Origin: Patescibacteria group bacterium
GTDB taxonomy: Bacteria > Patescibacteriota > Microgenomatia > UBA10105 > UBA927
Assembly (NCBI GenBank): GCA_041753515.1
Contig: JBGSUE010000040.1
Coordinates: 8,290-72,289, forward strand
Direction: 5' to 3'
Length of the DNA: 64,000 bases
Numbering within the stretch: position 1 is the first letter of the stretch; every line of letters starts with the position of its first letter. Position numbers and translations under genes: made by a program. This document shows, one piece after another, positions 1 through 57,055 of this stretch. Under the pieces are notes generated by a model. That model had not been told where the DNA came from and made no database searches. It saw only the letters and a program-made list of their open reading frames with translations.

Positions 1-1667
1 AGAATATTTTCTTCCCTTTTTCCTTTTTCCTTTTTCCTTTCACCTAATGACGGGTATCTTAAAAAGTACCACGAACTATCTAAAAATGTATCAGAAACGT
101 CCGTCTCACGCCTGGCATCCCCACCGCAATGAGGACATTTTACTTCATAAAATTCCGTATGTTTTGCCAAAGGAGCAATACTGTCATCGCCAGGACGGTA
201 GTCTTCTATACGGGGCAGCAGTACCGGCAATTGACCATTGGGCACTGGAAACCAACCGGCCATATCAGAAAATGCAGATTCTTCTGAATATGTGATTCCT
301 TTTGTAAAACAATATTTACAAAATATCATCGGAATCGGTGGACCCCAATATCTTTGGCGCGAAATAAGCCAATCACGCAGGTGATAGGTAGAAACCCGTT
401 TCCCCCATCCCATCTTTTCCATATGGTCCATCATTGCGGCAGTTGCTTTATGAATATCCATACCATTCAGAAATCCTGAATTCATCATAATTCCTTCATC
501 TTCCTGAACATCGTCAATGTGTGTAATACACCCGTCATTATTGGCTGTTTTAACAACACGTATGACCGGAATATCAAATTCCCGGGCAAATTCAAAGTCC
601 CGTTTGTCATGACCGGGCACTCCTACAACCGCTCCGGAACCAAATCCCATAAGAACAAAGTCGGAAATGTACACAGGCATCAGTTTTCCATTTAGATCGT
701 TTTGACAATATAAACCAGTAAAGACTCCGGTCTTCTTTCTCCCTTCTTGTGCTCTTTCCTCAGATGTAATCTGTGATACACTTTTTATATATTGCTTGAT
801 TTTTTTACTCTGATCCTGATTTATCACTGTCAGAATCTGACTGATAATTTCATGCTCAGGAGATAGAGCAACAAAGGTGGCCCCAAAGTTTGTATCTGGT
901 CTTGTAGTAAAACATATAAGGTCAAATACATATTTATGATCTCTATTGACTACCTTATATGTAATATTGATTCCTTCCTTTTTCCCGATCCAGTTTGTTT
1001 GTGCGGTTTTCACAATGTGTGACCAATGAAGTGCGGGAATGTTTTCCAGTAATTTTTCCGCATATGCGGTAATTCGAAAAAACCATTGTTCTAAAGATCT
1101 TTTTGTTACATTATTTCCGCATCTCTCGCATTTTCCATCTATAACCTGCTCATCAGCCAAAACCGTTTTACATCCCGGACAAAAATTAACCTCCGCCCGT
1201 TTCCGGTATGCCAGGCCGTGTTTAAACATCTCCACAAACAACCATTGAGTGAAACGGTAGTAATCCGGATCATACGTTTCCAGGGTTTTGTCCCAATCAT
1301 ACATTGCTCCTATCTTGTGAAGCTGTGCATAAAATTTTTTCTGCGTAACCAGAGCATGGTCCATTGGATGGCGTCCTATTTTCAATGCGAAATTTTCGCT
1401 GTGAATGCCAAAACCGTCCAGTCCAATAGGCTCAAACACATTGAAGCCGCACATTCGCTTGTAGCGGCCGAAAATGTCCGCACCGGTAAATGCATACATG
1501 TTTCCCACATGCAGGCCTTCAGCGGATGGATACGGAAACATCATAAGATTGAAAAATTTCTTTTTCGTATCTTTGACATCCGTACTATTCTGTCGAATTG
1601 TGTTCCAACGGGACTTCCATTTGGTTTCGATATCTGTATGATTAAACATAGGTGTAGTATATACCAT
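1..1667 (-). CDS. leuS: leucyl-tRNA synthetase, N-terminal ~555 aa (gene runs off the window start; no in-window stop, hence absent from the ORF track)
   Basis: Minus-strand frame open from ATG at 1665-1667 (MVYTTPMFNHTDIETKWKSRW...) to position 1. It contains PYPSAEGLHVGN (HIGH-like), LeuRS-specific HLRDWLISRQRYWGPPIP, zinc-knuckle CPGCKT...CERCG and TFLDSSWYFLRYP. Confidence 0.9.
   Translation of the reverse strand, partial: MVYTTPMFNHTDIETKWKSRWNTIRQNSTDVKDTKKKFFNLMMFPYPSAEGLHVGNMYAFTGADIFGRYKRMCGFNVFEPIGLDGFGIHSENFALKIGRHPMDHALVTQKKFYAQLHKIGAMYDWDKTLETYDPDYYRFTQWLFVEMFKHGLAYRKRAEVNFCPGCKTVLADEQVIDGKCERCGNNVTKRSLEQWFFRITAYAEKLLENIPALHWSHIVKTAQTNWIGKKEGINITYKVVNRDHKYVFDLICFTTRPDTNFGATFVALSPEHEIISQILTVINQDQSKKIKQYIKSVSQITSEERAQEGRKKTGVFTGLYCQNDLNGKLMPVYISDFVLMGFGSGAVVGVPGHDKRDFEFAREFDIPVIRVVKTANNDGCITHIDDVQEDEGIMMNSGFLNGMDIHKATAAMMDHMEKMGWGKRVSTYHLRDWLISRQRYWGPPIPMIFCKYCFTKGITYSEESAFSDMAGWFPVPNGQLPVLLPRIEDYRPGDDSIAPLAKHTEFYEVKCPHCGGDARRETDVSDTFLDSSWYFLRYPSLGERKKEKGKREENI
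17..44. repeat. heptanucleotide tandem repeat (TTTTTCC)x3 plus TTTCACC inside the leuS CDS; encodes a K/E-rich insert ERKKEKGKREE on the minus strand
   Basis: Direct reading of 17-44: tttttcc tttttcc tttttcc tttcacc. Total length is in-frame. Confidence 0.7.
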
Positions 1668-3774
1668 TGTTATAAGGCATGACAAGAATATACATTTCTT
1701 GCCACTTTCGCCCTCTTTATCCCGAATAATAGAAATTATATACAGTTTTCACACGCATATACACGTATAATTTCACAGGATACGTATGTTCGTAAGTCAA
1801 TCAGTCACTCAAAGGTGAAAATATATATATGTCTTATATCAATAGCCTAAATCAATCTAGCACTCATTGGTTATAAGTGCCATTTAACATAATTCGGAGC
1901 TAAATTATCTTGCGGGAATAATTAAATTGAATAGAAATATATTCGTGAATATTTACACCTCGATATGATAAAATAATTATTATAAGTTTTATAATAAACA
2001 TATTATCGGTTATAAGCTAGTTATAGATCGTTATAACGGTATTATTATTTCCCGGATGGATAATTTATTGATCAAGTAGTACTGAGTAATATACTGCATA
2101 TATTATTAAATATTTATTTAAATATGATGTCCTATGGTATAGAAATCTGCGGCTAAATATGTACATGCGTTAAATCGTGAATAGTAATTTTTACACTCAG
2201 GCATATTCCTCATCCTATTCATACAGATATTGATTCATCAAATAGATATGCATCGCTTCAAATTTATTTGCATAGATATACTTTATCAAAGCTTATTCCG
2301 GCATCCTAAAATATTTTCTTACCATTAGTATTTCAGTATTATGATCATGTAGACAAAAAAATCTGCCATTTCCTCGTTTTCAATTTATTCCAACGTACCT
2401 GCTCATACCTTCCACTATTTTATTTTTGTACAATAGGCTCTTGAATATGTATTCACCAGAAGTCGAAGAAACTAGCGAAATGTTTTTGCACTAAATGGAA
2501 TACGGGAATACCGTAAGTATCAATGAACCAGTTCATGATGGTTACTTACCAGATTCACACTTTATGTTAAAAAATAATTACATCATTGATTAATGACAAA
2601 CTACAAATGCTCACTGCTCTCATGTCTGAATGTACCCGACTTTTAAACACGTACAATAAAAACATCACTTTTTTCTTTTGTCGTAAAATATTCAACTCTC
2701 CTCCACTTTACATTTTTAATAGTTATTGATACGTCGTAAAAATTTTTATGAAATTTACATTATACATATAAAAATTTAAAAATTCTCACTATTGCATAAT
2801 AAACCTATAATATATTCTTCTTTTTATAATTATCTTTCCGTCACTAGTCGTACAAAATATTTTGGTATACTCTGCTCTAAAGATACAAATCTAATCTCAT
2901 ATACGTCGTAAAATTTTATATCAAATAAACATACCGGTAATACATATTTATTAAATCGTCGTAAAATATATACATTATCTGTCGAACGGCCTCACGAACA
3001 GGATTACAAATTTTCAGGAGAAATATTTATTAATTAGCCAAACTCAACCGAATATAATAAAACGGGATACAGACATCCACCAATTATTTCATTATATTGA
3101 TTCTATATACACATCTCTATTATTACTTCAGCATTTTACACTTCAATATCAATATAGTACTAAATGATATTTAAAACATCTATATATTATTTAATATTCT
3201 TTTTTATATATTAATACGACTTAAATGGATTGTTCTTGCGTGAGCCCCATAACCGAATCTGCATATCTTTAAATCTTTCATTAGAATACAGAGAAATTCC
3301 GCATACCTTTCCATTTTCAGTCGGACTCCGGGTGTTTGAAAAACCTTTCACTGTCATATTCAACGCAATCCCCATTCTTTATCCGACGTGCGCGATTCAC
3401 GGCTACTATTGTGCTCTGTTCAGTTCACTATCTATGCCGGTTGAGGAATTTTTCATCCGTTATATGGCATTTCAAAGGCTTACGGAAATGAGAGTTTTTT
3501 TATTAACTTTAGACTGTCATGTCAGTATGAAATATGAAATACTTTGAGGCTAAATTAGCAATCTCACTCTCTCATCTGCTAAATATCAATAATATCATTA
3601 GAACAGGAAAATCGTGGTTTTTGAAGCTAAAATATACTATATACTCCTCACTTTCCCCGAGTCATATTCATTTTTCAAACAATAACTATCTTATAGGACT
3701 CACCAAACTGATGTCAATTTTTCACTTTTTCCGGATTTCTATATCTAAAGATATCAATGAAGGACTTAACTACA
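1668..3774. other. 2.1-kb AT-rich region with no credible ORFs, between the leuS start and the 3' end of the pilin cluster
   Basis: Base composition far more AT-rich than flanking CDS. Stops in all six frames. The only track ORFs (3230-3547, 3534-3887) are low-complexity. Confidence 0.6.
2678..2970 (+). repeat. five same-orientation direct repeats of core [T]ACGTCGTAAAAT (iteron-like), spaced about 52-116 bp
   Basis: Copies at about 2678-2690 (ttgtcgtaaaata), 2730-2742 (tacgtcgtaaaaa), 2846-2860 (tagtcgtacaaaata), 2902-2917 (tacgtcgtaaaatttt) and 2955-2970 (atcgtcgtaaaatata). Confidence 0.6.
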
Positions 3775-4844: not shown

Positions 4845-5294
4845 TTATGGCACTAATGGTACACCACTCGTCAATCCGTAATTCACACCCGGCTCCAATC
4901 CACAGGCTGTTGCCGTACATCCCGCTTTTACTATATCAGGATCTGATGTCTGTTTAAGTGTTGCAAATATCCTATACCCGTCACACGATCCAATCTTTCG
5001 GTACAGATACTGTTGTTTGGTCTCCGGATCGCAGACAAATCTGTTCATGCCCTGATTTTCAAATGCAGTTGAACCGCAGATGGAAGGATCGTTGAGCGTG
5101 GCTTCATCGGGATAGCACCCGGTGTCATTGAAATACTGCTCCAGCATCACTTTCATCTTGGCAAGATCCTGCTTCCGGCGCCCGTCAAATCCTTTTTGAA
5201 GCTGTGCCATCCAGTTTGTGTATCCGGCTGCCAGTAGTAGCGCCATGATGGCTATCACAATCAGAAGTTCCATGAGGGTAAAGCCTCTTCTCAT
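4845..5294 (-). CDS. type IV pilin-like protein (start trimmed to MRRGFTLMELLIVIAI; the track ORF extends to 5372)
   Basis: The prepilin leader is normally 5-7 aa ending in G before FTLxE. RRKQDLAKMKVMLEQYF is paralogous to the two upstream pilins. Confidence 0.75.
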   Translation of the reverse strand: MRRGFTLMELLIVIAIMALLLAAGYTNWMAQLQKGFDGRRKQDLAKMKVMLEQYFNDTGCYPDEATLNDPSICGSTAFENQGMNRFVCDPETKQQYLYRKIGSCDGYRIFATLKQTSDPDIVKAGCTATACGLEPGVNYGLTSGVPLVP

Positions 5295-5313
5295 ATTTTC
5301 AGTATAATACAAC
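5295..5313. promoter_or_regulatory. 19-bp divergent intergenic region with overlapping -10 elements for two leaderless-type starts (TATAAT 5303-5308 on plus; TATACT from 5301-5306 on minus)
   Basis: Sequence is CAT(5292-94) attttcagTATAATacaac ATG(5314). Each -10 lies 5-6 nt from its start codon. Confidence 0.4.
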
Positions 5314-7383
5314 ATGATCCAGTTGTATATCTTTACAGAGAAAGCCCACGTAGGTATGATGGGGTCTATCATGACATCACGGATTGCTTTGGCAATACTC
5401 CTGTCTACAGTTGCAGTTTTTTATACCGGGTTCGGTGAGATATTCCAAACGCCGAAATTTTTTCTTCTGACTGGATCGACCCTCATACTCCTGTGTATTT
5501 TGGCCGTCAGGATAGTATTCGTCAACCGTATACCCATCCCGCGAATCGGCCTATGGACCGGATTTCTTGCTCTTGCCGTATCCTCGCTGATCACAACGGT
5601 ATTTTCCGGTTCAAACATCAGCGACCAGCTCAACGATCCTGTTGCCAGCCCATGGGTATTTTTCAGTCTTGCCCTTCTCTCGCATTTCTTACAGACTGCT
5701 TCTACCCGGGGAGCCACAACACTGCGATATACATATATCATCCTCGTCTCTATCCTTTCGATACTTTCCATCTATATGTACTTTGGTCTGGGAGAGATCA
5801 TGTTTCCGGCATCAGATATCCTGAAAGACAAACTATTTACTCCTGTTGGCAATCCGTATGTGCTTTTTGCACTGCTCGTCATGGCTATACCGGCGATTCT
5901 TTTTTCCATACAAAACGCGTACAGGCATACCCGGGATATTGATGTAGGACTCTATACCATAGCCGGGCTCTTGGTTCTCACCGGTACCGCTTTTTTAGGT
6001 ATCCAGCTTGCCCAAACAGCTTCAACATCACTCCTGCCCCTTTCTTCCGCCTGGTCAATACTCATGGAATCATATAAGACGTTTAAAAATGCGCTCGTCG
6101 GTGTGGGTTTGGACAACTATATCAGCGCATTCAATGCCGGCCGTCCGGCACAGCTCAACACAACACCCATCTGGAATCTCCGGTTCACTTCAGGCCCAAG
6201 CTTATTTTTCCATATTGGGGCAACTCAAGGATTGGTGGGGATCTTTGCATTTTCCGTATTTCTTATAAACATCGTGAAGTCAGTGAAAAATAACCCGGCA
6301 TGGTATAGGTTCAGTACGATTTTTCTTGCCGTGCTGTCCCTCTTTATCATCCAGCCTCATCTTGCCCTGTGGACGGGTCTCATATTCATCCTTCTTCCAC
6401 TCACGAAAAATTCCAACTCAAACCACGATGCATATCTCATCATTCATCAGCGCTGGGTTGCATGGGTTACTGCATCCGCGACTATTCTTGGCTGTGCCAT
6501 CCTTTTCATCTTCTGGTGGCGTTCTCTTATGGGAGAAATTGTATTCGGCCAGTCTTTGTCTGCCGCCTCCAATAATGACGGTAAAAAAACGTATGAAAAG
6601 CAAATTCAGGCAATCGGGTATAAACCGGACAAAACAGCATTCCATATCGCCTATTCCCAAACCAATATATCACTAGCAAATTCCATTGCTTCACAGGCCG
6701 AAAACAACCTGAATACGCTCACTGAAGAAGACAAAACTCTTTTCTCTCAACTTATCCAGCAGGCCGTCAGGGAAGCGAAAACTGCCACAACTCTCTCGCC
6801 AAGAAACGTCCTGGCATGGGAAAATCAGGCTAAAACGTATCAGGCGATTGCAGGTGTCGTCACCGGCTCCGACCAATGGGCAATCGCATCGTATCAGGAA
6901 GCCATCAAGCTGGATCCGACGAATCCGCTTCTTCGCATGGACCTTTCAGGTCTCTTTATGCGTTTGGGTAAATTTGACGAAGCGATCCAGGAGCTCAAAA
7001 CTGCCTCGTATCTCAAAAACGATCTTGCCAATATCCACTACAACCTCGCCTATGCTTACGGACAAACAAAGGCGTATTATAACCAGGCTGTAGAGCTCAA
7101 ACGGACAGCAGCGCTTATCGATCCCTCAAGCGAGGATGCAAAAAAAGTAGAAGATACACTGAAAGAGGTTGTAATCGAATTAAATGAACAGGAAAAAACC
7201 TCTTTTTCTGAAATTGTGACCGGTATTCCGGCAATAGACCAGATCCCGCTCTCAACTCCAAAACCCGAACCGGTTTTCGAGATCGAACCGAAGCTGGATA
7301 TTCTCCCCGAAGAGGCAACAACATCTTCCTTACCGCACCCTTCCCCAGAGAGCACCGGCGGAGATGAAACAGTAGAGAACTAA
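5314..7383 (+). CDS. O-antigen ligase (Wzy_C/WaaL/PglL-PilO) family polytopic membrane protein with C-terminal TPR repeats; candidate pilin O-oligosaccharyltransferase
   Basis: About 12 TM segments. Wzy_C-like block GVGLDNYISAF...SLFFHIGATQGLVGIFAFSVFL. C-terminal TPR-like AYYNQAVELKRTAALIDP. Divergent from the pilin genes. The start could instead be MMGS at 5356. Confidence 0.65.
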   Translation: MIQLYIFTEKAHVGMMGSIMTSRIALAILLSTVAVFYTGFGEIFQTPKFFLLTGSTLILLCILAVRIVFVNRIPIPRIGLWTGFLALAVSSLITTVFSGSNISDQLNDPVASPWVFFSLALLSHFLQTASTRGATTLRYTYIILVSILSILSIYMYFGLGEIMFPASDILKDKLFTPVGNPYVLFALLVMAIPAILFSIQNAYRHTRDIDVGLYTIAGLLVLTGTAFLGIQLAQTASTSLLPLSSAWSILMESYKTFKNALVGVGLDNYISAFNAGRPAQLNTTPIWNLRFTSGPSLFFHIGATQGLVGIFAFSVFLINIVKSVKNNPAWYRFSTIFLAVLSLFIIQPHLALWTGLIFILLPLTKNSNSNHDAYLIIHQRWVAWVTASATILGCAILFIFWWRSLMGEIVFGQSLSAASNNDGKKTYEKQIQAIGYKPDKTAFHIAYSQTNISLANSIASQAENNLNTLTEEDKTLFSQLIQQAVREAKTATTLSPRNVLAWENQAKTYQAIAGVVTGSDQWAIASYQEAIKLDPTNPLLRMDLSGLFMRLGKFDEAIQELKTASYLKNDLANIHYNLAYAYGQTKAYYNQAVELKRTAALIDPSSEDAKKVEDTLKEVVIELNEQEKTSFSEIVTGIPAIDQIPLSTPKPEPVFEIEPKLDILPEEATTSSLPHPSPESTGGDETVEN

Positions 7384-15001: not shown

Positions 15002-15030
15002 TTGACAAAATAATGTACGTTTTGTATACT
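15002..15030 (+). promoter_or_regulatory. sigma70-type promoter TTGACA-N17-TATACT, 8 nt upstream of the phd start (leaderless-type)
   Basis: TTGACA 15002-15007, spacer 17 nt, TATACT 15025-15030, ATG at 15039. The spacer holds gtacgttttgtatac, a possible operator. Confidence 0.6.
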
Positions 15031-15038
15031 CTATTCAT

Positions 15039-15311
15039 ATGCAGCTCCAACCATCCCAATTCATTCCGATAACCGAAGCAAGAACGAGAATTTCTGAACT
15101 TACAAAATCCGTTGAAGGAGACACGTATGTTGTACTGACAAAAGGTGGGAAACCCAAAGCTGCACTGGTTGATATTGCCTATTTACAACGTTTGCAGAAT
15201 GATCTCTCCAAACTCTATAAAAAAACTTATATCGACCCAGTACTTCTTCCGATTACCCGTCAATTTTCCGATAGTGAAATACAAGAGTGGGAAAAAGAGG
15301 ATCAGCTATAA
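15039..15311 (+). CDS. type II antitoxin, Phd/YefM family
   Basis: MQLQPSQFIPITEARTRISELTKSVEGDTYVVLTKGGKPKAALVDIAYLQRL is the Phd_YefM fold signature. Confidence 0.8.
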   Translation: MQLQPSQFIPITEARTRISELTKSVEGDTYVVLTKGGKPKAALVDIAYLQRLQNDLSKLYKKTYIDPVLLPITRQFSDSEIQEWEKEDQL

Positions 15312-22824: not shown

Positions 22825-23771
22825 GTGGCTTGAATTGTAGCATATATAATCTCCAAAGCTTCGTGTGCAGTAGTGGTTTTCATCATCCTTTCACGGACAC
22901 TCGTTGCATCATGAAATCCCTTTATGTACATCTTAAAAAATTTCTTGAGTGATGCAAAGTTTTTTTTTGTACCCCAGACATCTTCAAATAGCACAATGTG
23001 TTTCTCCAGAAGCCGAAGAAGATCCTCATGAGCAATGTCCGTGCGAGAAAATGCCCAGGGGCTTTGAAAGACGCCACGGCCGATCATCACGCCATCCACA
23101 CCCCACTGTTCATGTTTTTGCCGGGCCTCTTTGGCATCGGCAATATCACCATTTCCCACGATGAGCGTTTTGACCCCCATCCGGTCCCGAATTTTAACTG
23201 CTTTTCCGATTTCATCCCAATGAGCCGGCACTTTAGACATTTCTTGAGCAGTCCTGCCGTGTACCGTCAATACATCTATATTCTGCTCCAATACAAACGA
23301 AATCCACTCATCAGTCCGGATATCATGTATCCCTATCCTCGTCTTCACGCCCACAGGAAAATTTCCTGCAGCGCTTTTTACGGCAGAAATAATCTTTCTT
23401 GCACCATCAGGACTGTCTATCATGGCCGCTCCACACCCGAGTTTCATCACCTCCCGGACAGGACACCCCATATTGATATCAATACCGGCAAACCCCATTC
23501 CTGCGATCTCTTTCGTGGCTTTATACATCGTATCGGGATTTTTCCCCCAAATCTGAGCAACAAGCGGTTGCTCGCTGTCCGTAAACCGCAGAGCATCGGA
23601 AACCCATCTTCTCCCGGCAGAACAGAATCCATCCGCACTCACAAATTCGGTAAACATCACATCGGGCTTGGCGCAGGAGGCAATAATTTGCCGGAATACT
23701 GTATCCGTAACGCCATCAAGCGGTGCTAGTGCCAGAAAAGGTTTTGGGAGCTTGTGCCAAAAAGATTCCAT
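22821..23771 (-). CDS. dus: tRNA-dihydrouridine synthase (Dus family)
   Basis: LAPLDGVTDTVFRQI...IDINMGCP...VKTRIG...VHGRT are Dus/NifR3 TIM-barrel motifs. Confidence 0.85.
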   Translation of the reverse strand: MESFWHKLPKPFLALAPLDGVTDTVFRQIIASCAKPDVMFTEFVSADGFCSAGRRWVSDALRFTDSEQPLVAQIWGKNPDTMYKATKEIAGMGFAGIDINMGCPVREVMKLGCGAAMIDSPDGARKIISAVKSAAGNFPVGVKTRIGIHDIRTDEWISFVLEQNIDVLTVHGRTAQEMSKVPAHWDEIGKAVKIRDRMGVKTLIVGNGDIADAKEARQKHEQWGVDGVMIGRGVFQSPWAFSRTDIAHEDLLRLLEKHIVLFEDVWGTKKNFASLKKFFKMYIKGFHDATSVRERMMKTTTAHEALEIIYATIQAT

Positions 23772-23792
23772 AGCGTAGAGTATAATACATTC

Positions 23793-24650
23793 ATGGAATT
23801 ATGGTTTCTGTATGCAGTCGGATCGGTTGTTTTTCTTGCCACATTCTCGCTTTTCACCAAAAAACTGTTCACAAGAGGGTTTGATCCGCTCCTCTACGGC
23901 GGGGCAATGCAGTTTACCGTCGGCGTCATGGCGATCCCGCTGGTATTAATCTACGGATTTTCATTTGATGTTTCTTTCAAAACCGTGACAATTCTTCTGG
24001 TGAGCGGCTTTGTCTACGCTGCCGCCGCATCGCTCAACTATTACGGTCTGTCAAAAACTGAGCTTTCCCGCGCTGCCATCCTCACCTCAACTGCCGCAAT
24101 CTGGGGCATGGTCTCGGGATTCGTATTTTTGGGTGAACCGTTCACCTCCCAAAAAATTCTTGCCATCGTCTGCATTATTTCGGCCATTCTGCTGATCGAA
24201 GGAAAAAACAACAACCTGAAGTTCGCAAAATATGATCTCTTTATCCTCGCCTCGGCTATTTTTTATGCCGTTGGTGCGTCTCTTGATAATATTCTGGTCA
24301 GTCACTCCGATCCGTTTTCCTATCTTATGGTCTCATTCCTGACGGCAGGCACCACAATGCTTCTCATGCATTCACGCCATAATGCGGCTATAGTCCGATC
24401 CACGGCCAGACAAAAGGATTTTATAAAAATGCTCATGCTCAATTCATTTTTTATCCTTTTATCGTATGCCATGATTTTTTCGGCGTATGAAGCGGACGGT
24501 GAAGTATCTGAAGTGTATGCCATCGAACAACTTGAAACCGTACTGACAGCTTTTCTGGGTATACTCATCCTGAGAGAATTCACACGTCTGCCGTACAAAC
24601 TCATTGCAGCAATGCTTGCATTCGCCGGACTCATGATGCTCAAAAAGTAA
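23793..24650 (+). CDS. EamA/DMT-superfamily transporter (start trimmed to MELWFLYAVG)
   Basis: 10 TM segments and two EamA-like halves. The untrimmed start at 23754 would overlap the dus start. Confidence 0.7.
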   Translation: MELWFLYAVGSVVFLATFSLFTKKLFTRGFDPLLYGGAMQFTVGVMAIPLVLIYGFSFDVSFKTVTILLVSGFVYAAAASLNYYGLSKTELSRAAILTSTAAIWGMVSGFVFLGEPFTSQKILAIVCIISAILLIEGKNNNLKFAKYDLFILASAIFYAVGASLDNILVSHSDPFSYLMVSFLTAGTTMLLMHSRHNAAIVRSTARQKDFIKMLMLNSFFILLSYAMIFSAYEADGEVSEVYAIEQLETVLTAFLGILILREFTRLPYKLIAAMLAFAGLMMLKK

Positions 24651-26511: not shown

Positions 26512-26796
26512 TCATGTAAAATAATCACTCTGTGAGAGTGCGCTTTTCAGGTCTTTCAGAAAATCAGGGGAATATTTTCCGGTATTTTGAAAACCGGATA
26601 AAATTTTGGCTATAGAACGGGTAGAGGGCGGATCAAGAGGTAGGACACTCGCCTGGTCAACAAGTTCGGGTTTATGGCGCACCAGGCGCAAAACCGCGCG
26701 AAAAAGCTCGCTGCGGCTGGCAAAACCGTATTTGGAAACCATTGAGTCAATAAAACTGACTTGATCGGATGGAAGTGAAATATTCACGGAACTCAT
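26512..26796 (-). CDS. ribbon-helix-helix antitoxin (ParD/CopG family); start trimmed to MSSVNISLPSDQ
   Basis: NISLPSDQVSFIDSMVSKYGFASRSELFRAVLRLV matches the ParD RHH pattern. Confidence 0.65.
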   Translation of the reverse strand: MSSVNISLPSDQVSFIDSMVSKYGFASRSELFRAVLRLVRHKPELVDQASVLPLDPPSTRSIAKILSGFQNTGKYSPDFLKDLKSALSQSDYFT

Positions 26797-26802
26797 AACC
26801 AA

Positions 26803-26832
26803 ACTATACCAAACTTTGCCAATTTTTGTCAA
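26803..26832 (-). promoter_or_regulatory. promoter TTGACA-N18-TATAGT, 6 nt upstream of the parD ATG (leaderless-type); direct repeats GTTTGGT may form an operator
   Basis: Minus-strand reading: ttgacaaaaattggcaaagtttggtatagtttggttATG. Confidence 0.55.
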
Positions 26833-32170: not shown

Positions 32171-33014
32171 GTCCGGTTCGCGGTGTCCATTTCAGATTCT
32201 CCTGCGCATAAGAAATATCTGCCAGAGATTGGAATATATCATGTGCGTGACGAGTTTTATATTGAATCCGCAACGGCTGTTTATGCAAAGTTTCCACCAT
32301 CTCCACAAGACTGCGTATGGATGTTTTTGTGCCTGAAGCAATATTGTACACACCGCCTGCTTTCATCGTGTATGCCCGGTAATTTGCTTCTGCGACATCC
32401 TCAACATACACAAAATCCCTTGTTTGATATCCATCCCGTATGACAATATTTTTCCCTGATACCGCTCTTGAGATAATTGTAGGTATGGCTGCATGTGTTC
32501 GGGTAGTTTGGCCGGGACCATACACATTGAAATACCGTACTATCGTTTTTGTGATTTTACCTGTTTTGGCAATGTGTTCAAGCTCCCGTTCTATGGCATA
32601 CTTACTTTTTCCGTATGGAGACAGAATCCGGATAGGCGCGGTTTCGGACGTCGGGATTGAATCAGGATTACCATAGATATGGGCGCTTGACGCAAAAATA
32701 ATCTGACCGGTTCCAGATGCAGCGGCAATGGAAAAAAGGTTTTTTGCAATTGTCACATCCCGGTCTGATTTCTCCGGGTGAAGGACCGATTCAGGAACGC
32801 TCACAAGCTCGCTTGCTAGGTGTATAAGGCAATAAGGCCGGTATTTCCTGAATATTTCGGCAAGTTTGGATGTGTCCTTCAGGTCAACGACGACAGAATT
32901 GTCAGATGGATTGCGGTCCAGTCCAACAACGGGGATATTTTTTCTGCTAAAATAGTGTGCAACATGCCGGCCGATGAAACCGGATGATCCAGTAACGAGA
33001 ACCGTACGACCCAT
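32085..33014 (-). CDS. NAD-dependent epimerase/dehydratase (start trimmed to MGRTVLVTGSSGFIG)
   Basis: Rossmann motif VLVTGSSGFIGRH. YGKSK is YxxxK. Confidence 0.8.
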   Translation of the reverse strand: MGRTVLVTGSSGFIGRHVAHYFSRKNIPVVGLDRNPSDNSVVVDLKDTSKLAEIFRKYRPYCLIHLASELVSVPESVLHPEKSDRDVTIAKNLFSIAAASGTGQIIFASSAHIYGNPDSIPTSETAPIRILSPYGKSKYAIERELEHIAKTGKITKTIVRYFNVYGPGQTTRTHAAIPTIISRAVSGKNIVIRDGYQTRDFVYVEDVAEANYRAYTMKAGGVYNIASGTKTSIRSLVEMVETLHKQPLRIQYKTRHAHDIFQSLADISYAQENLKWTPRTGLMDGLRKTYTYYETIVRHQKETALSSSS

Positions 33015-33777
33015 GAACATTACAGTATCACTCATTATCCCCTTTTACAATGAGGCCCAAATCCTGCCGCACACGATTGACTGCCTGTTAAAATACAGGG
33101 AGAAAAATCTTAAAAACTGCGAAATTATTTTTGCCGATGACGGATCAACGGATTGTTCTGCCCCAATCATTCGGGATCTTACGAAAAATAAGAAGCACAT
33201 CACGGTGGTTCAAAATCCGGTTAATATGGGACGCGGTGAAGCAATCCGGCGTGCCATGTTGACCGCAAAAGGAAATATCATCGGGTATCTTGATGCGGAT
33301 CTGGAAATCAGTGAAACATACATCTTGCCGATGATACGATGTCTTCACGATGCAGATGCAGTCATTGCGTCAAAATTTGCACACGGAGCACATACCCGTA
33401 CATCGCTCGTACGCAAAATCCCCAGCATTCTCTTTAATTGGATGATACGGAAAATTCTCTCCACGAATATTTCCGATCATCAGGCAGGATGTAAGTTTTT
33501 CAAACGCGAGGTGATTTCCGCCGTACTTCCGCTTACGAACCAATACGGATGGCTATTTGATATTGAGATGCTGTATGGTGCACGACAACATTCATTCACA
33601 ATCGAAGAGTTTCCAATTTCCGTTGCGTACGGCAGAGGCAGTATTCATCCGTCCTTCGTCTTTGACTTTTTACGTCTTCCGGGTGTACTCTTGAATCTTA
33701 AAAGGAACACCCATGAAAACATCCAAAAAAATCCTGATCACAGGCGGAGCCGGATTCATCGGACGCCATCTGACTGA
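33013..33777 (+). CDS. GT2 polyprenyl-phosphate sugar synthase (DPM1-like); start trimmed to MNITVSLIIPFYNE
   Basis: IIFADDGSTDCS...LDADLE...ASKFA. Its ATG (33013-15) overlaps the CAT (33012-14) of the divergent epimerase. Confidence 0.75.
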   Translation: MNITVSLIIPFYNEAQILPHTIDCLLKYREKNLKNCEIIFADDGSTDCSAPIIRDLTKNKKHITVVQNPVNMGRGEAIRRAMLTAKGNIIGYLDADLEISETYILPMIRCLHDADAVIASKFAHGAHTRTSLVRKIPSILFNWMIRKILSTNISDHQAGCKFFKREVISAVLPLTNQYGWLFDIEMLYGARQHSFTIEEFPISVAYGRGSIHPSFVFDFLRLPGVLLNLKRNTHENIQKNPDHRRSRIHRTPSD

Positions 33778-36339: not shown

Positions 36340-36368
36340 TTGATTTCATTAGCAAGCTTTGCTACAGT
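36340..36368 (+). promoter_or_regulatory. promoter TTGATT-N17-TACAGT, 6 nt upstream of the ATG at 36375 (leaderless-type)
   Basis: Direct reading of 36340-36374. Confidence 0.45.
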
Positions 36369-36374
36369 TGGTTC

Positions 36375-38018
36375 ATGAAATCCACATATATTGCACGAGC
36401 GTTTCTTCTCACCATTTTTCTGTTTATCATTCACCTCTTTATCATCAATGATTATTCAATCAACTGGGATTTCCACCATGTCTTTTTTGCAGGTCTCTAC
36501 CACACCGGGCATCCTGTCACACGGGATCTCTGGTATGGCCTACCGTTTAACGATCCGGACCCCATGCGGATGGTGGAAACTCCATTCGGTCCGCTCCAAT
36601 CTGCTATTCCGGTATTATCGTATACGACGTTTTTCGAAAAACTGAAACTATTGCCGTTTGACAGCGCGTTTAATCTTCCTGCAGTTCTGGCCGGTTCTGC
36701 CGGAGTTTTTATTCTGTTTCTCTTTCTTCTGGAAACATTCAACCCCGCAACTGCCTGGGCAGGATTTTTATTCCTGGCATTGTATCCCAGGTTTTGGGGA
36801 GATCTTCATACAAACGTTAAGGATATCCCGACTGCCGTTCTGTATACCCTCTCAATCTATCTTGCCTGGCGGGCAGTCAACCGGAGGATTTGGCCGGATA
36901 TCATTGCCGCAGGCATTGCCACAGGCATAACTTTTAATCTCAAAGTAAACGCCATATTCATACCGATCATTATTGCCGTTTGGATCTTGTGGCTTCTTGC
37001 AACACCTGCCAAAAAACACCTGACAAAACCATTCGGGAATGTGTGGGACAACATCATTACTCCCTTCGGTTGTTATGCCATTATTGCAGCCTTGTCCGCT
37101 TTCGGCATTTGGTCTTTGTTCTGGCACAACCCCTATGACCATCTGGCATATCTGATCCGTTTTTTCCAGTACAACACAACGAATATGGAAGTAATTTTAA
37201 ACGGCTTCTGGTACTGCAGCGGTGTCAATATTCCCTGGTATTACCCCTTCTGGTATCTTGCCATCGTCACGCCGTTGCCTACCCTCATATTTGCAGTCAT
37301 AGGTTTTATGCGTCTTTTCTATCTTGCGCTCATTAAAAAACACCCATTATCTTCGCTCATCATCTTTTGGTTTTTTATCCCGCTTATCAGGTTTATGGTT
37401 CCAAATGCCTCCGTTATCGACGGCATCAGGCATTTTGAGGAAGTCATCTTTCCTTGGCTTGCAGCCGCCGCCATCGGTGCAGCATTTCTTTACAATACAT
37501 TTCTTTCAAAGAAATTATCCGTTCTCCGTCTACCGTCTGCCGTCATTCTATCTGTCTATCTTCTATCATCTATTCTCTCCTATCACCCCTACCAGCTCTC
37601 CTATTTCAATGAACTGGTCGGCGGACTTCCCGGAGCAGTCGGAAAATATGACGTCGATTACTGGGGAATATCGCAGAAAAAAGCCGTAGAATGGCTGAAC
37701 GTAAATGCCAAACCCAACGCAAGCATTCACATTATCATGTCTGCAGACGTGGCCGGAAAATATCTCCGGCCTGATCTTCTGGCAAACCTCAATAAAACGG
37801 ATTACGACAGTGCCGATTACGTGGTCGTCCTAAACCGACAATCCTTCTTTTACCGGTTTTTCTACTCGTGGGAATACTTTTTGAGACGGAAAACCGTATA
37901 TGAAGTGAAAGTGAAAGGCGTACCGCTCACCAGCATTTATCAAAATTCACTGGGAAAATTTGAAAGAAGACCTAATTGGTGGCAGGGAGAAGATCCTTGC
38001 ATGAGAAAATACTGGTAA
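36375..38018 (+). CDS. GT-C-fold membrane glycosyltransferase-like protein (PMT/ArnT-like)
   Basis: 547 aa, polytopic, with a C-terminal soluble domain. Confidence 0.5.
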   Translation: MKSTYIARAFLLTIFLFIIHLFIINDYSINWDFHHVFFAGLYHTGHPVTRDLWYGLPFNDPDPMRMVETPFGPLQSAIPVLSYTTFFEKLKLLPFDSAFNLPAVLAGSAGVFILFLFLLETFNPATAWAGFLFLALYPRFWGDLHTNVKDIPTAVLYTLSIYLAWRAVNRRIWPDIIAAGIATGITFNLKVNAIFIPIIIAVWILWLLATPAKKHLTKPFGNVWDNIITPFGCYAIIAALSAFGIWSLFWHNPYDHLAYLIRFFQYNTTNMEVILNGFWYCSGVNIPWYYPFWYLAIVTPLPTLIFAVIGFMRLFYLALIKKHPLSSLIIFWFFIPLIRFMVPNASVIDGIRHFEEVIFPWLAAAAIGAAFLYNTFLSKKLSVLRLPSAVILSVYLLSSILSYHPYQLSYFNELVGGLPGAVGKYDVDYWGISQKKAVEWLNVNAKPNASIHIIMSADVAGKYLRPDLLANLNKTDYDSADYVVVLNRQSFFYRFFYSWEYFLRRKTVYEVKVKGVPLTSIYQNSLGKFERRPNWWQGEDPCMRKYW

Positions 38019-43553: not shown

Positions 43554-44194
43554 CTCACCATTTCCCAGACGGTTTTGAGGCGGGTTGTGGATGATCCGGT
43601 ATCGCGAATCAGCGATGGAGCCGGAATTTCATACCATGTCAGTCCCCTCTTTTTCAAGGCAAGAAGAAGCTCAAGATCGACAGCAATATTGTTGGCCGTC
43701 AGCGGTATGGACTTCAGCAGTTTTGTTTCCAGAAGTTTGGGTGTTGCGTTCACGTCTTGTGTATCAATTCCAAACAGTATTCTTGCGAGAATATTATATA
43801 TCCGGGAATTCAGGAGTCTCGTCCCGTTTTCGCGTGTTGTGCGCCAAATTTTTACCAATGCTGCATGTTTTCTGATTTCATACAATTTTTCGATATATTC
43901 AGGATCAATCTGACCATCAGACACCATGTAGCACGTATACATTCCACCCGCTTTTTGGATGCCTTTCCTCACCGCATTCCCCCATCCGATCTGTGATTGC
44001 ATAACTACAAGTTCTTTAATTTTTTTTTGCAGACTTTTCAAAACAGACAAAGTAATATCAGTTGATCCGTTTTCCATACAGATAATTTCATACGAAATTT
44101 TCAGTTTTTTGAGAACCGCAATAATTGTTTTCAGATTTTTTTCTATCCCTGCCGACTCATTATGGACGGGAAGGATGACGGTTAAATCCACCAT
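43523..44194 (-). CDS. GT2 polyprenyl-phosphate sugar synthase (short DPM1-like)
   Basis: LTVILPVHNESAGI...MENGSTD...SDGQ. Confidence 0.7.
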   Translation of the reverse strand: MVDLTVILPVHNESAGIEKNLKTIIAVLKKLKISYEIICMENGSTDITLSVLKSLQKKIKELVVMQSQIGWGNAVRKGIQKAGGMYTCYMVSDGQIDPEYIEKLYEIRKHAALVKIWRTTRENGTRLLNSRIYNILARILFGIDTQDVNATPKLLETKLLKSIPLTANNIAVDLELLLALKKRGLTWYEIPAPSLIRDTGSSTTRLKTVWEMVRWMIVFRLHI

Positions 44195-44239
44195 GGAACA
44201 TACTATAGCAAAAATAACTCCAGAAACCTATCTTGTATC

Positions 44240-44268
44240 TTGATTTAAATATAACTATAGGATAAAAT
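44240..44268 (+). promoter_or_regulatory. promoter TTGATT-N17-TAAAAT, 6 nt upstream of the ATG at 44275 (leaderless-type)
   Basis: Direct reading: ttgatt taaatataactatagga taaaat cctccc ATG. Confidence 0.5.
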
Positions 44269-44274
44269 CCTCCC

Positions 44275-45636
44275 ATGACAATTGAAAAAGAACACGGATC
44301 TGTGGAATTTATGAATCTGCCTCACACAGTTGAATCCTGGATTATGCATCCGCCTGCTGGCGGATCACTGGGAATTGAAACATTTACAATAGAAACCCCA
44401 ATTCGACCGGTTGAAATCACCATAAAACAGGCAGTCAAAGCCGAGCAGGTTGGAAATCCTCTCAAAGCCGGGTGCGGCGACGTTGCAGCAGTATTTCACA
44501 CATCTTACCCGCTTGCTTATCCCTCGACACCAGATAATTGTGCCCATATTACCGGTATCGTATGCAGGGATTTTCTGTCCCACGCGCCATCTGATTTACC
44601 ATTCTGGGAGAAAATGAAATCCGATCCTAAAATTTTGGATCATGCCGAAAGTAATGGTGTACCTATACTGAAAACTGACAGCATCGACTCCTGGACCGCT
44701 GGAAAATTGAGAACACCCAATGATTACGGTCAACTATTGATGAGTTCTCTACCATTTGACCATATGATCAATGTGGCACGCAATCCCAGATATTTCCCTT
44801 ATCTACATAAACTTGTTGAATTGGAATCGATACGTTATCAGGGCGGTGATATATCTCTGCGCACCTGCATCGACATGACTAAGAGAGTGGAACGTGTTGA
44901 TGATATTGTGCTTGACCCAATTGATAAAGTTATAACGCATGCAGTAAATACTCTTAAACATGTACCGTCTGTTGGATTTGGCGGTGACATCCAAACTCTA
45001 GCCTTTATCATCCAGATGCCTGGCAACCAGGGCGCTATACTCGCACTTCTGCGAAGCAACGCAGACGAGGTGACACGGATTAAACCGGCATCAGATCTAC
45101 CTTGGCTTCTTTTTGCTGACAATACAAATTTTCTCATGGAAGATCAGCGTATAAATTCCGAACATCGTCCCGAACATACGGATTTCAACTACAAGGCAGC
45201 AGGGTATTGGATGACAGGAGCCGGTGGCTGGAGACGGCGACGAATGATTCCTTCCGTAGCCAATAAAGGATTGCCTCGCTATACATTGTCCATTTTTTCG
45301 ATCCCTGCTGATTCAGACATGCAAATCGAAACGGTTACCGACGGTATGATATTTTCCCCCTTTGAATTAAACCGTTCTTATGGACAACTTGAAGATCAAA
45401 AAAGTCTTTTTCATATTCTTCATCGATACCTTCAATCAGGCAATCGCGAGTCATATCAGCGACAAATTACATTACTGCAAAGAATAAAACCTGAGGGTTG
45501 GATTATCAGGAATCCTGATGTTATGAATCTCTCGACATTAGTCAAAGCTGAAGAATATATTAGTTTTCTGCAGATAAAAAAGGATCTGGAACAGCCGTTT
45601 GATGATGCGACATTTATCGGCGCAAAAGTAGTATAA
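44275..45636 (+). CDS. hypothetical protein (453 aa); weak resemblance to a 2OG-Fe(II) oxygenase core
   Basis: No confident domain. HTD at EHRPEHTDFN and RYTLSIFSIPADSDMQIE resemble an HxD motif and the R-x-S 2OG-binding motif. Confidence 0.5.
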   Translation: MTIEKEHGSVEFMNLPHTVESWIMHPPAGGSLGIETFTIETPIRPVEITIKQAVKAEQVGNPLKAGCGDVAAVFHTSYPLAYPSTPDNCAHITGIVCRDFLSHAPSDLPFWEKMKSDPKILDHAESNGVPILKTDSIDSWTAGKLRTPNDYGQLLMSSLPFDHMINVARNPRYFPYLHKLVELESIRYQGGDISLRTCIDMTKRVERVDDIVLDPIDKVITHAVNTLKHVPSVGFGGDIQTLAFIIQMPGNQGAILALLRSNADEVTRIKPASDLPWLLFADNTNFLMEDQRINSEHRPEHTDFNYKAAGYWMTGAGGWRRRRMIPSVANKGLPRYTLSIFSIPADSDMQIETVTDGMIFSPFELNRSYGQLEDQKSLFHILHRYLQSGNRESYQRQITLLQRIKPEGWIIRNPDVMNLSTLVKAEEYISFLQIKKDLEQPFDDATFIGAKVV

Positions 45637-53550: not shown

Positions 53551-53600
53551 TTTTAAACAAATTTCATCTTTGTTATACCTGTTATTATATAATAGATGCC

Positions 53601-54278
53601 ATGCTGAAACTGATCATTTTTGATTGGGACGATGTTATCACGACAGGGGCAAAGAATGGGTATTATGCCTGCTACCAAAAAGCACTTGAAGCAGACGGGA
53701 TTTCGTTAGACCCCAATGAATTTGACGCGCGTCTCAAACGCAAATGGGGCCAACCGTACAGGGAAGAAATAAAAGAACTGCTCAAGGAATATCCGCACCT
53801 TGTTGAAAAAGCGTGTGATACATATCAAAAGCACAAATTCGGTAACACATTCATTGATAGTCTTCGCCCCATACCGGGGGTTAACACTCTTTTCACACAA
53901 CTGAAAAAAACGTACATTTTAGCTGTAGCTACGGCAAATCAGCCCAAAATGCTTTCAAAGATTATCACAAAATTCAACATACCGGATGTTTTTTCACAAA
54001 TTGTGACTGCGTATGACCCTGAAATACCTCCACATAAAACAAAACCTGACCCCCTCATGCTTCAAATCATTCTTCAAAATCACAATATTCAACCTGATGA
54101 AGCAATCTACGTGGGAGACGCTTCAAATGACGTTCAGATGGCAAAAAATGCCGGAGTCGCTCCGGTCGTTGTCCTCACCGGACATCTCTCGCAGCAAGAG
54201 GCAAAAGAGCTTGGGGTTGAATGGATTCTCCCAGACGTAACACATCTGCCGGAAATTTTCGATTCTGTGTGTCTATGA
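53601..54278 (+). CDS. HAD-superfamily hydrolase (phosphatase; start trimmed to MLKLIIFDWDDVITTG)
   Basis: Motif I FDWDDVI. Motif III K. Motif IV GDASNDVQMAKNAG. Confidence 0.75.
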   Translation: MLKLIIFDWDDVITTGAKNGYYACYQKALEADGISLDPNEFDARLKRKWGQPYREEIKELLKEYPHLVEKACDTYQKHKFGNTFIDSLRPIPGVNTLFTQLKKTYILAVATANQPKMLSKIITKFNIPDVFSQIVTAYDPEIPPHKTKPDPLMLQIILQNHNIQPDEAIYVGDASNDVQMAKNAGVAPVVVLTGHLSQQEAKELGVEWILPDVTHLPEIFDSVCL

Positions 54279-55522: not shown

Positions 55523-57025
55523 TACAGATATCTGCTCGGGCGATACAATGTATCGAATACTATATATTCGAATAATAGAATCTTTAACAAAATCGTCTGT
55601 TCCGTATATGAGTTCATTGAGTGCACTCGTTTTTTCTTCCGGCATATAGGTAAACGTGGGATGGCCTGCGAGCGTCCTGTGGGGAGTAAATGCGGGAAGA
55701 AGCGTTGAGAGTGTCTCAGGGGCGGCAACGACTCCGGGATTTTGTACAGAAAGAAATTCAATAACTGTCATCATATCATCGGGAACCATAACGAGAGGAT
55801 TAGTCATATTCTTTTCAACATACATATCCTGACGGCTCAGGCTAATGGCAAATGTCGGCATACCCAAAGCCACACTTGCCAATACAACGATATACATCCA
55901 TGTCCTCCTCATGGAAAACGGTTTCACGAAAACGGTTATCGCCAGTGTTGCCAGGAGCGCTGAAGGGATATACCCGGCTGACTGCAGATATCTGCCGTTT
56001 GAAACCGGAATAAATTGTGTGAAAAGCCCCAGTCCCAAAAATGGGAACAGAAACCATCCGAGAATGGTGTTCCACCGAAAATCGCGGCGATAGAGAAGAA
56101 ACGGGATTGATACGATAGCTATGACCCCCACTATTCCAAGCGTTTCCAGATACCCCATCATATTGATGGGGTACTGTACAAACCTCTCCCAATCACGGAA
56201 AGCGGTCCACGGAAAAGTGCTCCCCTGGATTTTCATCATGAAAAACACCTGGGCAATAAGGATAAGATAAAAAATCTCGATCTCGCCGAATTTGAATTTA
56301 TAGAGCCGGAGAAATCTGTAAAACGTCAATACGATCCCTGTGGCGATGGCCACACTCAAGGCCATCAGGCTTGCCGGATTGAGCCACACACTGACAAGAG
56401 CGCAACATGTTGCCCCGATAGTCAACCGGAATGACTGCAGTGTTTCTTTCCTTCTCTCAACCATACGCATGAAAAGTATCATGGCGGCGATCATAAAGGC
56501 ATTGGAAAATGTGTGATGCGGAAGCCATGAAACACGTAAGATCGGATCAAAACCGGTCCAGAATTCACCAGCCTGATACAGCGCTCCGCCTTTTGACCAC
56601 CAGAACGGAGCACCAAAACACATAAATAACAGCGCAATAATTCTCTGATGCAGAGTAAACCGCAGTTCAACAGCCAGTACATAGCCCGTAAACAGAAGCA
56701 TTGATCCTCCAACAATCCGTAGTACCGTATACATGGCAGGAATGCTTAAATGAAATATTTTTGCGGCCATGCCGGCCAGAGGAAAAAATGTGTTGATAAG
56801 CTGTGGCGTAAAAGTTTCCGGCGTATAGTTTGAAGTGAGAAGAAGCGATCCGTCATACCCCTGCCGCATTAGAGACAGATACCAGTAGTAGTCCTGTTCA
56901 TAATTGTGAACGAAAGGATACTCAAAGCCTTCAGGCATTTTTACTTGATACAGAAATGTCTGATACAAACTGACAACAACAAAAAATACTATTGCTGCGG
57001 CAACAATAAGATATCCCTTTTTCAT
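55463..57025 (-). CDS. GT-C-like paralog family member 6 (start trimmed to MKKGYLIVAAAIVFF)
   Basis: PEGFEYPFVHNYEQDYYWYLSLMRQGYDGSLLLTSNYTPETF. C-terminus MIRNSSYIVYERID. Confidence 0.55.
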   Translation of the reverse strand: MKKGYLIVAAAIVFFVVVSLYQTFLYQVKMPEGFEYPFVHNYEQDYYWYLSLMRQGYDGSLLLTSNYTPETFTPQLINTFFPLAGMAAKIFHLSIPAMYTVLRIVGGSMLLFTGYVLAVELRFTLHQRIIALLFMCFGAPFWWSKGGALYQAGEFWTGFDPILRVSWLPHHTFSNAFMIAAMILFMRMVERRKETLQSFRLTIGATCCALVSVWLNPASLMALSVAIATGIVLTFYRFLRLYKFKFGEIEIFYLILIAQVFFMMKIQGSTFPWTAFRDWERFVQYPINMMGYLETLGIVGVIAIVSIPFLLYRRDFRWNTILGWFLFPFLGLGLFTQFIPVSNGRYLQSAGYIPSALLATLAITVFVKPFSMRRTWMYIVVLASVALGMPTFAISLSRQDMYVEKNMTNPLVMVPDDMMTVIEFLSVQNPGVVAAPETLSTLLPAFTPHRTLAGHPTFTYMPEEKTSALNELIYGTDDFVKDSIIRIYSIRYIVSPEQISVSGFREMIRNSSYIVYERID

Positions 57026-57055
57026 CCCCCATAGTGTACTATTGTCCTGTATCAT

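Follow-up and report, generated by a model that had tools for sequence, protein, structure and literature searches.

In a 64,000-nucleotide stretch of a Patescibacteria group bacterium contig (JBGSUE010000040.1, positions 8,290 to 72,289; hereafter the window), many genes are preceded at a short, fixed distance by a hexamer resembling a bacterial -10 box. We propose that these are sigma-70-type promoters placed so that transcription would start on the A of the start codon or no more than 1-2 nt away from it, a reading to which we assign a probability of about 0.75. Our starting point was the divergent gene pair at 5292-5316, in which a prepilin-type gene on the minus strand and a gene for a Wzy_C-like/TPR membrane protein on the plus strand face away from each other across two overlapping -10 hexamers. 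A preliminary description of the window had proposed a recurrent leaderless-type layout (-35, 17-nt spacer, -10, short gap, ATG), mainly leaderless or Shine-Dalgarno (SD)-independent initiation, and very compact regulatory regions. Every sequence-level test that we ran supports leaderless or SD-independent initiation as the probable main mode, and the compactness is evident from a coding density of 94% and a median intergenic distance of 19 bp.

The -10 hexamer and its distance from the start codon

Start codons were taken in two ways. Under a naive rule, immune to promoter-viewing bias, we used the first ATG of each of 63 greedily picked open reading frames (ORFs) and found TANNNT at gaps of 5-8 nt in 24 of them, against 3.8 expected from 2601 other ATGs, a 6-fold excess. 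The second set comprised 58 starts curated from Pfam domain offsets and homologue N-termini; here TANNNT stood at gaps of 5-9 nt in 27 cases (binomial p ~1e-15), and a hexamer matching TATAAT at five or more of its six positions did so in 23 (~40% of genes, compared with 3.0% of other ATGs). Within the window, the element was present at 14 of the 22 divergent transcription-unit heads.

Identical code applied to 100 kb of Escherichia coli K-12 returned a -10 at 2.3% of starts, with a flat profile, and an SD at 50%. Our comparison set consisted of 80 loci (L002-L081) around orthologs of the tRNA-dihydrouridine synthase gene (Dus), drawn from GTDB species representatives and mostly from Microgenomates- and Saccharibacteria-named bins of the candidate phyla radiation (CPR). 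Among their 1222 ORFs, the naive rule placed TANNNT at gap 6 in 14.3%, compared with ~3% at flanking gaps and ~1% before internal ATGs, and the code used for E. coli found a -10 in 25-28% and an SD in 10-16%. TATAAT, TATACT, TACAAT and TAAAAT are the hexamers at this peak, which is present in the Microgenomates-named and in the Saccharibacteria-named loci. The profile of -10-to-ATG distances, a check proposed in the preliminary description, thus peaks at 6-7 nt in the window (58 curated starts) and at exactly 6 nt in the related loci. Run on the annotated starts of plasmid MP1 of Deinococcus radiodurans, the looser TANNNT test found the element at 6 of 41, a divergent pair with a 30-bp spacer among them. 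Same-strand genes no more than 25 nt apart in the 80 loci carried a near-consensus -10 at gap 6 in 10.7% of cases, compared with 10.2% at transcription-unit heads (TANNNT preceded 12% of the tightly packed genes), which suggests that many internal leaderless promoters are embedded in the 3' ends of upstream genes.

Chance or annotation artefact, fed by AT-rich spacers and a free choice of start codon, is an explanation to which we give almost no credence. The -10 is close to a palindrome, and in 3-6% of trials random AT-rich spacers of 19-21 bp hence do show correctly placed near-consensus -10s on each strand; the curated starts were picked by eye; and in-frame TAA or TAG stops can imitate TAnnnT under a first-ATG rule. 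However, the 6-fold excess was obtained with the naive rule, the 58 curated genes gave only 2-7 hexamers with at least five matches to TATAAT in each other 5-nt gap window compared with 23 at gaps 5-9, the E. coli control was flat, and the pattern was replicated in 1222 independent ORFs. An origin of the gap-6 peak in in-frame stop codons was rejected, since gaps 0, 3, 9 and 12 show no such peak and the hexamers mostly begin with TAT or TAC. A single short divergent pair is weak evidence; recurrence is what counts.

We aligned 286 sites from the 80 loci and the window, chosen only for T-A-n-n-n-T at gaps of 6-7 nt. The unselected positions gave T-17 (54%), T-15 (54%), G-14 (55%), A-9 (68%), A-8 (59%) and a weak T-35/T-34, a pattern that reads as the extended -10 signature TRTGnTAtaaT. 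Because the T-17/T-15/G-14 extension, A-9/A-8 and the weak -35 emerge unselected, the hexamers are best interpreted as sigma-70-type promoter elements and not as ribosome-binding sites. Among the 27 window sites, the TG extension occurs in nine and a TTG at a spacer of 16-18 nt in seven (5.7% expected; p = 6e-4). Most sites, among them both hexamers of the flagged pair and those of the Dus/EamA pair described below (2/6 each), lack a TTGACA-like -35 at 16-18 nt.

The coordinates in the preliminary description were exact throughout, and five of its sites do combine a -35, a 17- or 18-nt spacer, a -10, 6-8 nt and an ATG (15002-15041, 26832-26794, 36340-36377, 44240-44277 and 58717-58755). The uniform 17-nt spacer that it described holds at 15002, 36340, 44240 and 58717 but not at the minus-strand parD (RHH antitoxin) site, where the spacer is 18. 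Nor is the -35 a general part of the layout, given the seven TTG-bearing sites of 27; the extended -10 is the commoner upstream element. The flagged pair lacks the full layout, with -35 matches of 4/6 on the pilin side and 2/6 on the plus side.

If the hexamers instead served translation, as an AT-rich non-SD initiation signal on leadered mRNAs like that of GeneMarkS-2 group B (Bacteroidetes), their presence at gap 6 before tightly packed same-strand genes, the scarcity of SD sequences and the many sites without a -35 would all be in keeping, and in the Bacteroidetes too an AT-rich motif lies near many starts, internal genes included. We consider this very unlikely. The window motif differs from the Bacteroidetes one in its TG extension, its -35, its 6-nt discriminator and its TATAAT/TATACT/TACAAT consensus with an obligatory final T; T at -17 and TG at -15/-14 arise unselected, TTG is enriched at a spacer of 16-18 nt, three perfect TTGACA-17/18 sites occur in the window, and the modal gap is the canonical distance from a -10 to a transcription start site (TSS). 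Packed-gene cases are explained by promoters inside upstream genes, and the motif is missing from about half of the genes, whereas a group B motif would precede all of them.

For the promoter interpretation, the modal gap of 6 nt is the canonical discriminator length, and therefore the A of the ATG would be +1. The base at -1 is a pyrimidine in 24 of the 27 starts with a -10, compared with 49% of all window ATGs (across all 58 curated starts, 49 have a pyrimidine and only one a G), which would fit the pyrimidine-purine preference at -1/+1; however, a pyrimidine also precedes the ATG at 25 of the 31 starts without a -10.

The reported scarcity of SD sequences was confirmed, as only three of 58 genes have a convincing one (GAGGAG-6-ATG 27444, AAGGAG-8-ATG 42745 and AAGGA-6-ATG 33713). 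With the E. coli-control code, SD-like cores precede 12% of window starts compared with 50% in E. coli, near chance level for the window. No SD peak appeared in the 17 closest loci (L002-L018), and a small one (~16%) did in more distant CPR loci. Genes without a -10 of their own are mostly coupled to the upstream gene through ATGA/TAATG overlaps or gaps of 0-6 nt, and these too lack an SD.

The start choices agree with Pfam domain offsets. Deposited (NCBI-source) proteins share the starts of Dus, EamA (23793), the TPR protein (5314) and the genes at 57025, 57056 and 35307; exact look-ups of the candidate forms of the epimerase, GT2, pilin and HAD proteins found them absent from the deposited protein collection. 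An alignment of 26 sequences fixes the Dus N-terminus as M-x-x-[FI]-W, and a -10 precedes this conserved Met by ~6-9 nt in most of the 80 loci.

Several considerations lower our confidence in leaderless initiation from these hexamers. The curated starts were picked with the upstream sequence visible, a bias mitigated by the naive rule and the matches to deposited proteins. About half of the genes, including unit heads behind the hairpin elements described below, lack both an SD and a -10 at leaderless distance; therefore leaderless initiation is not the whole story. A published survey found the anti-SD retained in the CPR except in a Parcubacteria subgroup (PMC9297842), and if this holds for the source organism, the SD would be unused rather than impossible. 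Finally, the evidence consists of sequence layout, statistics, promoter signatures and conservation in relatives, and its being of this sequence-statistical kind tempers the certainty of the reading.

In the mechanism that we propose, RNA polymerase would recognise the -10 hexamer (TAtaaT), often with a TG/TRTG extension and sometimes with a TTGnnn -35, melt the DNA and initiate 6-7 nt downstream at the pyrimidine-purine step formed by the -1 base and the A of the ATG. The mRNA would begin 5'-AUG, and the ribosome with initiator tRNA would bind this terminal AUG directly, free of any SD interaction. Genes without their own -10 would mostly be joined to the upstream gene, SD-less, via overlapping or abutting stop and start codons. 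From the layout we infer the TSS positions, leaderless translation and, at divergent pairs, the mutual exclusion of the two orientations.

Divergent pairs with short spacers

At the flagged pair, CAT 5292-5294 and ATG 5314-5316 are separated by 19 bp and TATAAT on the plus strand overlaps TATACT on the minus strand, as had been described. The pilin side is solid: the product of gene 4845-5294 matches PF07963 N_methyl (E = 4.8e-8, residues 2-25), and the leader peptides of the two downstream prepilin paralogs are likewise short. A longer pilin ORF from 5372 was disfavoured, as its leader peptide would be atypically long.

The plus-strand partner at 5314 is uncertain. The hexamer at 5303 matches the TATAAT consensus perfectly, ATG 5314 lies only two codons after an in-frame stop, and the deposited protein P0121, 100% identical over 689 aa, begins at 5314. 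Other observations count against transcription from the overlapping hexamer into this ATG. Related loci show no enrichment at a gap of 5, and the usual +7 start from TATAAT 5303 would fall on the T of ATG 5314, even if initiation might be drawn to the C-A step at 5313/5314. Residues 1-14 of the 5314 form are unmatched in five of six homologues, and a second candidate promoter at 5332-5360 scores best in the 1-kb region (10/12), better than TATAAT 5303.

These same features would be expected of a back-to-back arrangement, in which the 5301-5308 core is used by the pilin promoter alone and the Wzy_C-like/TPR gene is transcribed from the 5332-5360 promoter, starting at ATG 5371 (MTSRIALAILL...) behind a 3-5 nt leader. 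The true spacer would then be 76 bp, with adjacent -35 boxes at 5324-5329 and 5332-5337, and the plus-strand TATAAT would be the mirror image of the pilin -10. Two orthologs point in this direction: L082 (36% identity) has TTTACA-17-TATAGT followed 12 nt later by a Met that aligns near ATG 5371, and L083 has TTGACA-17-TTTAAT-8-ATG. Furthermore, MTSR ahead of a transmembrane helix is typical of how membrane proteins begin. However, the gap of 10 before ATG 5371 is off-peak too, the Met of homologue P0124 aligns with residue 15 rather than 20, and the consensus TATAAT with its in-frame ATG and the deposited annotation favour 5314. We regard the back-to-back arrangement as possible but somewhat doubtful, and its promoter and the overlapping -10 promoter are not mutually exclusive.

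Under the overlapping -10 reading, the 19-bp AT-rich spacer would form a pseudo-symmetric bidirectional core on which polymerase could load in either orientation, but not in both at once. The minus orientation would yield a leaderless pilin-operon mRNA and the plus orientation an mRNA from or next to ATG 5314 of the Wzy_C-like/TPR gene, which may instead, or also, use the second promoter ending 10 nt before ATG 5371.

The Wzy_C label given to 5314-7383 is tentative: the window protein matches TPR families alone, with no PF04932 match at E <= 0.1, but five homologues (24-34% identity) carry PF04932 Wzy_C. Across 3775-7383, three tandem prepilin-type genes diverge from the Wzy_C-like/TPR gene, and L082 is similar at 4192-8097 (36% protein identity), with three small genes divergent from the homologue, one of them with a weak prepilin N_methyl match. 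In L082, the nearest ortholog of the flagged pair, the spacer is 158 bp, compared with 19 bp in the window. The 3775-7383 arrangement recalls cases of pilin O-glycosylation enzymes encoded beside pilin genes.

The Dus/EamA pair is a cleaner example of the overlapping -10 architecture than the flagged pair. Its core, AGTATAATAC, is identical to that at 5302-5311, and the opposed -10s overlap by 4 bp in both pairs (5303-5308/5306-5301 and 23781-23786/23784-23779). The Dus start is anchored by the 26-sequence alignment, both starts match deposited proteins, and in the 23793 form the EamA domain starts at residue 4, as calculated from a Pfam match at residue 17 of the 23754-start ORF. No alternative promoter was detected at this pair. 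The 57025/57056 pair, with its 30-bp spacer, also illustrates the architecture better than the flagged pair does.

Cores of the AGTATAAT or AGTATACT type are found again in short divergent spacers of other CPR loci, for example L037, L040 and L046, in some cases once more at Dus. In D. radiodurans MP1 (L086), the genes of the divergent pair 23963/23994 lie 30 bp apart, with TACCCT-7-ATG and TAGCGT-6-ATG on opposite strands; very short divergent leaderless spacers thus have a precedent in an organism known to be leaderless-rich.

The CATG at 33012-33015 had been singled out as an extreme case if both annotated starts were real. The epimerase gene (minus) and the GT2 gene (plus) do overlap head to head, by at least 2 bp: seven homologues begin within one residue of the GT2 Met and fix its start at 33013, and the Rossmann motif of the epimerase makes 33014 the most downstream start possible. 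Only the epimerase side fits the leaderless layout. GT2 has no -10 at leaderless distance, and its nearest candidate, TGcTAAAAT at 32944-32952, would give a ~54-nt leader. Each gene's promoter must sit inside the other's coding sequence.

Setting and other features of the window

The window has a GC content of 44%, and a tRNA scan and an Rfam scan of its 64 kb gave no matches; it is hence without rRNA. Pfam matches show mostly glycosyltransferases, sugar epimerases, aminotransferases and large membrane proteins, together with the three prepilin-type genes and two toxin-antitoxin pairs. Dus (22821-23771, minus strand) was the sole housekeeping marker used for placing the window among relatives. 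Its best homologues are 57-63% identical, the named ones being Woesebacteria, Gottesmanbacteria or 'Patescibacteria group', and the closest Dus locus in the comparison set is only 59% identical; the window species is not among the matches. The named homologue of the TPR protein comes from a 'Microgenomates group bacterium'. On these grounds we consider the source a CPR/Patescibacteria member of Microgenomates type.

Table 1. Start codons and candidate promoter elements in the window (hexamer-spacer-hexamer-gap-ATG; lengths in nt; TG extensions in brackets).
Feature	Positions	Strand	Details
Pilin ATG	5292..5294	-	First of three prepilin-type genes (4845-5294; MRRGFTLMELL...)
-10 TATACT	5301..5306	-	6 nt before pilin ATG; modal gap in CPR loci
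-35-like TATACA (4/6)	5329-5324	-	17-nt spacer to TATACT
-10 TATAAT	5303..5308	+	5 nt before ATG 5314; overlaps minus-strand -10 by 4 bp; no -35
First in-frame ATG, Wzy_C-like/TPR membrane protein	5314..5316	+	ORF 5314-7383; alternatives 5356, 5359, 5371
Alternative promoter and start	5332..5373	+	TTTACA(5332-5337)-17-TATGAT(5355-5360)-10-ATG 5371; 10/12 in promoter scan
Dus ATG / EamA ATG	23769..23795	both	Dus ATG 23771-23769 (-); EamA ATG 23793-23795 (+); 21-bp spacer
Dus/EamA -10s	23779..23786	both	TATACT 23784-23779 (-), gap 7; TATAAT 23781-23786 (+), gap 6; 4-bp overlap
Gene 57025 promoter	57023..57062	-	TGGACA(57062-57057)-18-TACACT(57038-57033)-7-ATG 57025; divergent start 57056, 30 bp off
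Back-to-back divergent pair, minus arm	44192..44277	-	80-bp spacer; (TG)TATAGT(44207-44202)-7-ATG 44194
Back-to-back divergent pair, plus arm	44192..44277	+	80-bp spacer; TTGATT(44240)-17-TAAAAT-6-ATG 44275
Epimerase promoter	33012..33050	-	TTGTAA(33050-33045)-17-(TG)TACTGT(33027-33022)-7-ATG 33014
phd antitoxin promoter	15002..15041	+	TTGACA(15002-15007)-17-TATACT(15025-15030)-8-ATG 15039
RHH antitoxin ('parD') promoter	26794..26832	-	TTGACA(26832-26827)-18-(TG)TATAGT(26808-26803)-6-ATG 26796
PMT_2 membrane glycosyltransferase promoter	36340..36377	+	TTGATT-17-(TG)TACAGT-6-ATG 36375
Promoter before ATG 58753	58717..58755	+	TTGACA-17-(TG)TAGTCT-7-ATG
LeuRS promoter	1647..1685	-	TTGTCA-18-TATACT-6-ATG 1649
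HAD hydrolase, -10 only	53588..53603	+	TATAAT-7-ATG
Further -10-only sites	10130-10125(-), 27704-27709, 30769-30774, 59502-59507, 61746-61751

The two toxin-antitoxin modules lie at 15039-15785 (Phd and a weak PIN-like partner) and 26251-26796 (RHH and a HigB/RelE-like partner), and of the full-consensus TTGACA promoters in the window, the two best belong to their antitoxin genes.

Six intergenic hairpin elements of 59-83 nt (11097-11177, 16823-16882, 17621-17703, 38913-38971, 49903-49976 and 51742-51820) share the termini GTCATTCTGA...TCAGRATGAC and the inner arms GAAGAATCT/AGATyCTTC, with folding energies of -20 to -45 kcal/mol, and look REP/MITE-like. Each stops 5-25 nt before an ATG, and the gene behind it has neither a leaderless-distance -10 nor an SD. 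A role as promoter carriers was rejected, as the distance to the ATG varies over these 5-25 nt. Elements resembling them occur in one of the 80 related loci (L012).

A 2.1-kb stretch (1686-3774) separates LeuRS from the pilin genes; in a genome with otherwise 94% coding sequence, it has ~33% GC and neither a plausible ORF nor an Rfam match, and it holds four copies of the TCGTCGTAAAA motif (~2678, 2733, 2905 and 2956). A AATTAYGAATTATGAATT-like motif, partly in tandem, occurs at 9499-9594, 21836, 36290 and 39778-39799, in spacers directly 5' of the starts at 9495, 21773, 36288 and 39767. The GT2 ORF at 17305-17586 (93 aa) matches only profile positions 1-70 of 168 and is probably a truncated or frameshifted glycosyltransferase, with the adjoining 122-aa ORF (16873-17241) a possible remnant of it.

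Relation to known systems and meaning for the CPR

GeneMarkS-2 assigns Actinobacteria and Deinococcus-Thermus to a group C, whose leaderless transcription is marked by a Pribnow box 6-8 nt upstream of start codons (Lomsadze et al. 2018, PMC6028130). This group is also described for some code-4 Mollicutes (PMC6028130; 10.1101/2022.07.25.500264), and its code-11 genomes almost all have high GC (10.1101/2022.07.25.500264). The window resembles group C in its TANNNT at a fixed 6-8 nt from the ATG, in the presence of the element at roughly 25-50% of transcription-unit heads, and in the implied TSS at the A of the AUG with predicted SD-independent translation. It differs in its clade, as CPR/Patescibacteria are not among the groups named in the text of PMC6028130, and in its mid to low GC of 44%. 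Further differences are that its remaining genes are mostly without an SD, whereas those of group C are modelled as SD-led, and that in CPR loci even tightly packed same-strand genes often have the element in front of them. A full-text literature search found no paper linking leaderless expression with Patescibacteria, the candidate phyla radiation or Saccharibacteria. For the CPR, only one TSS set was found, the 188 RNA-seq-inferred sites of N. lyticus (PMC12641261).

Like the extended -10 (TGn/TRTGn) promoters of E. coli and Gram-positives, the sites are enriched for T-17, T-15 and G-14, a third of those in the window (9/27) carry the TG, and the -35 is weak; a difference is that neither hexamer of the flagged pair has a TG extension. 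Warman et al. reportedly described, in 2021, bidirectional promoters with a shared pseudo-symmetric -10. In such promoters, established in E. coli and reported for other prokaryotes, the TSSs are modally ~18 bp apart, and distances of 10 and 23 bp are frequent as well (Warman et al. 2026, PMC12825309). The window pairs likewise have opposed -10s that overlap in a short AT-rich core (AGTATAAT reads as TATAAT on one strand and TATACT on the other) and need no -35, and their implied TSSs, placed from the start codons, would be ~19-21 bp apart, near the modal distance. Unlike the E. coli cases, which have 5' untranslated regions, both window transcripts would be leaderless and the core would be the entire 19-21 bp intergenic region. 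The window would thus combine the known leaderless layout of group C with the shared -10 bidirectional promoter, in a new clade.

We tentatively put forward, with our judgement resting just short of an even balance, that CPR/Patescibacteria, at least Microgenomates and Saccharibacteria, form a third large leaderless-dominated bacterial clade after Actinobacteria and Deinococcus-Thermus, one with mid to low GC, near-zero SD use in Microgenomates-like genomes and many tightly packed same-strand genes each with its own gap-6 -10. Gene starts in CPR bins are called by SD-tuned tools, and if these genomes are leaderless-rich, promoter-aware models would be needed; the calls affected are start codons, N-termini (signal peptides, pilin leaders) and small genes. 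The consensus TRTGnTAtaaT, 6 nt, ATG is testable and could aid genetic tools in Saccharibacteria, which has cultured strains.

If the reading is true, CPR 'operons' would largely be arrays of individually transcribed leaderless genes, and two leaderless genes would share, as the smallest unit of regulation, a bidirectional -10 core of 19-21 bp; such spacers would mark how far a bidirectional promoter compacts when neither transcript has a leader. It would also call for an explanation of how initiation without an SD is achieved on nearly all mRNAs by a ribosome short of several proteins, though with its anti-SD reportedly kept, and a link between leaderless expression and the reduced CPR ribosome could exist.

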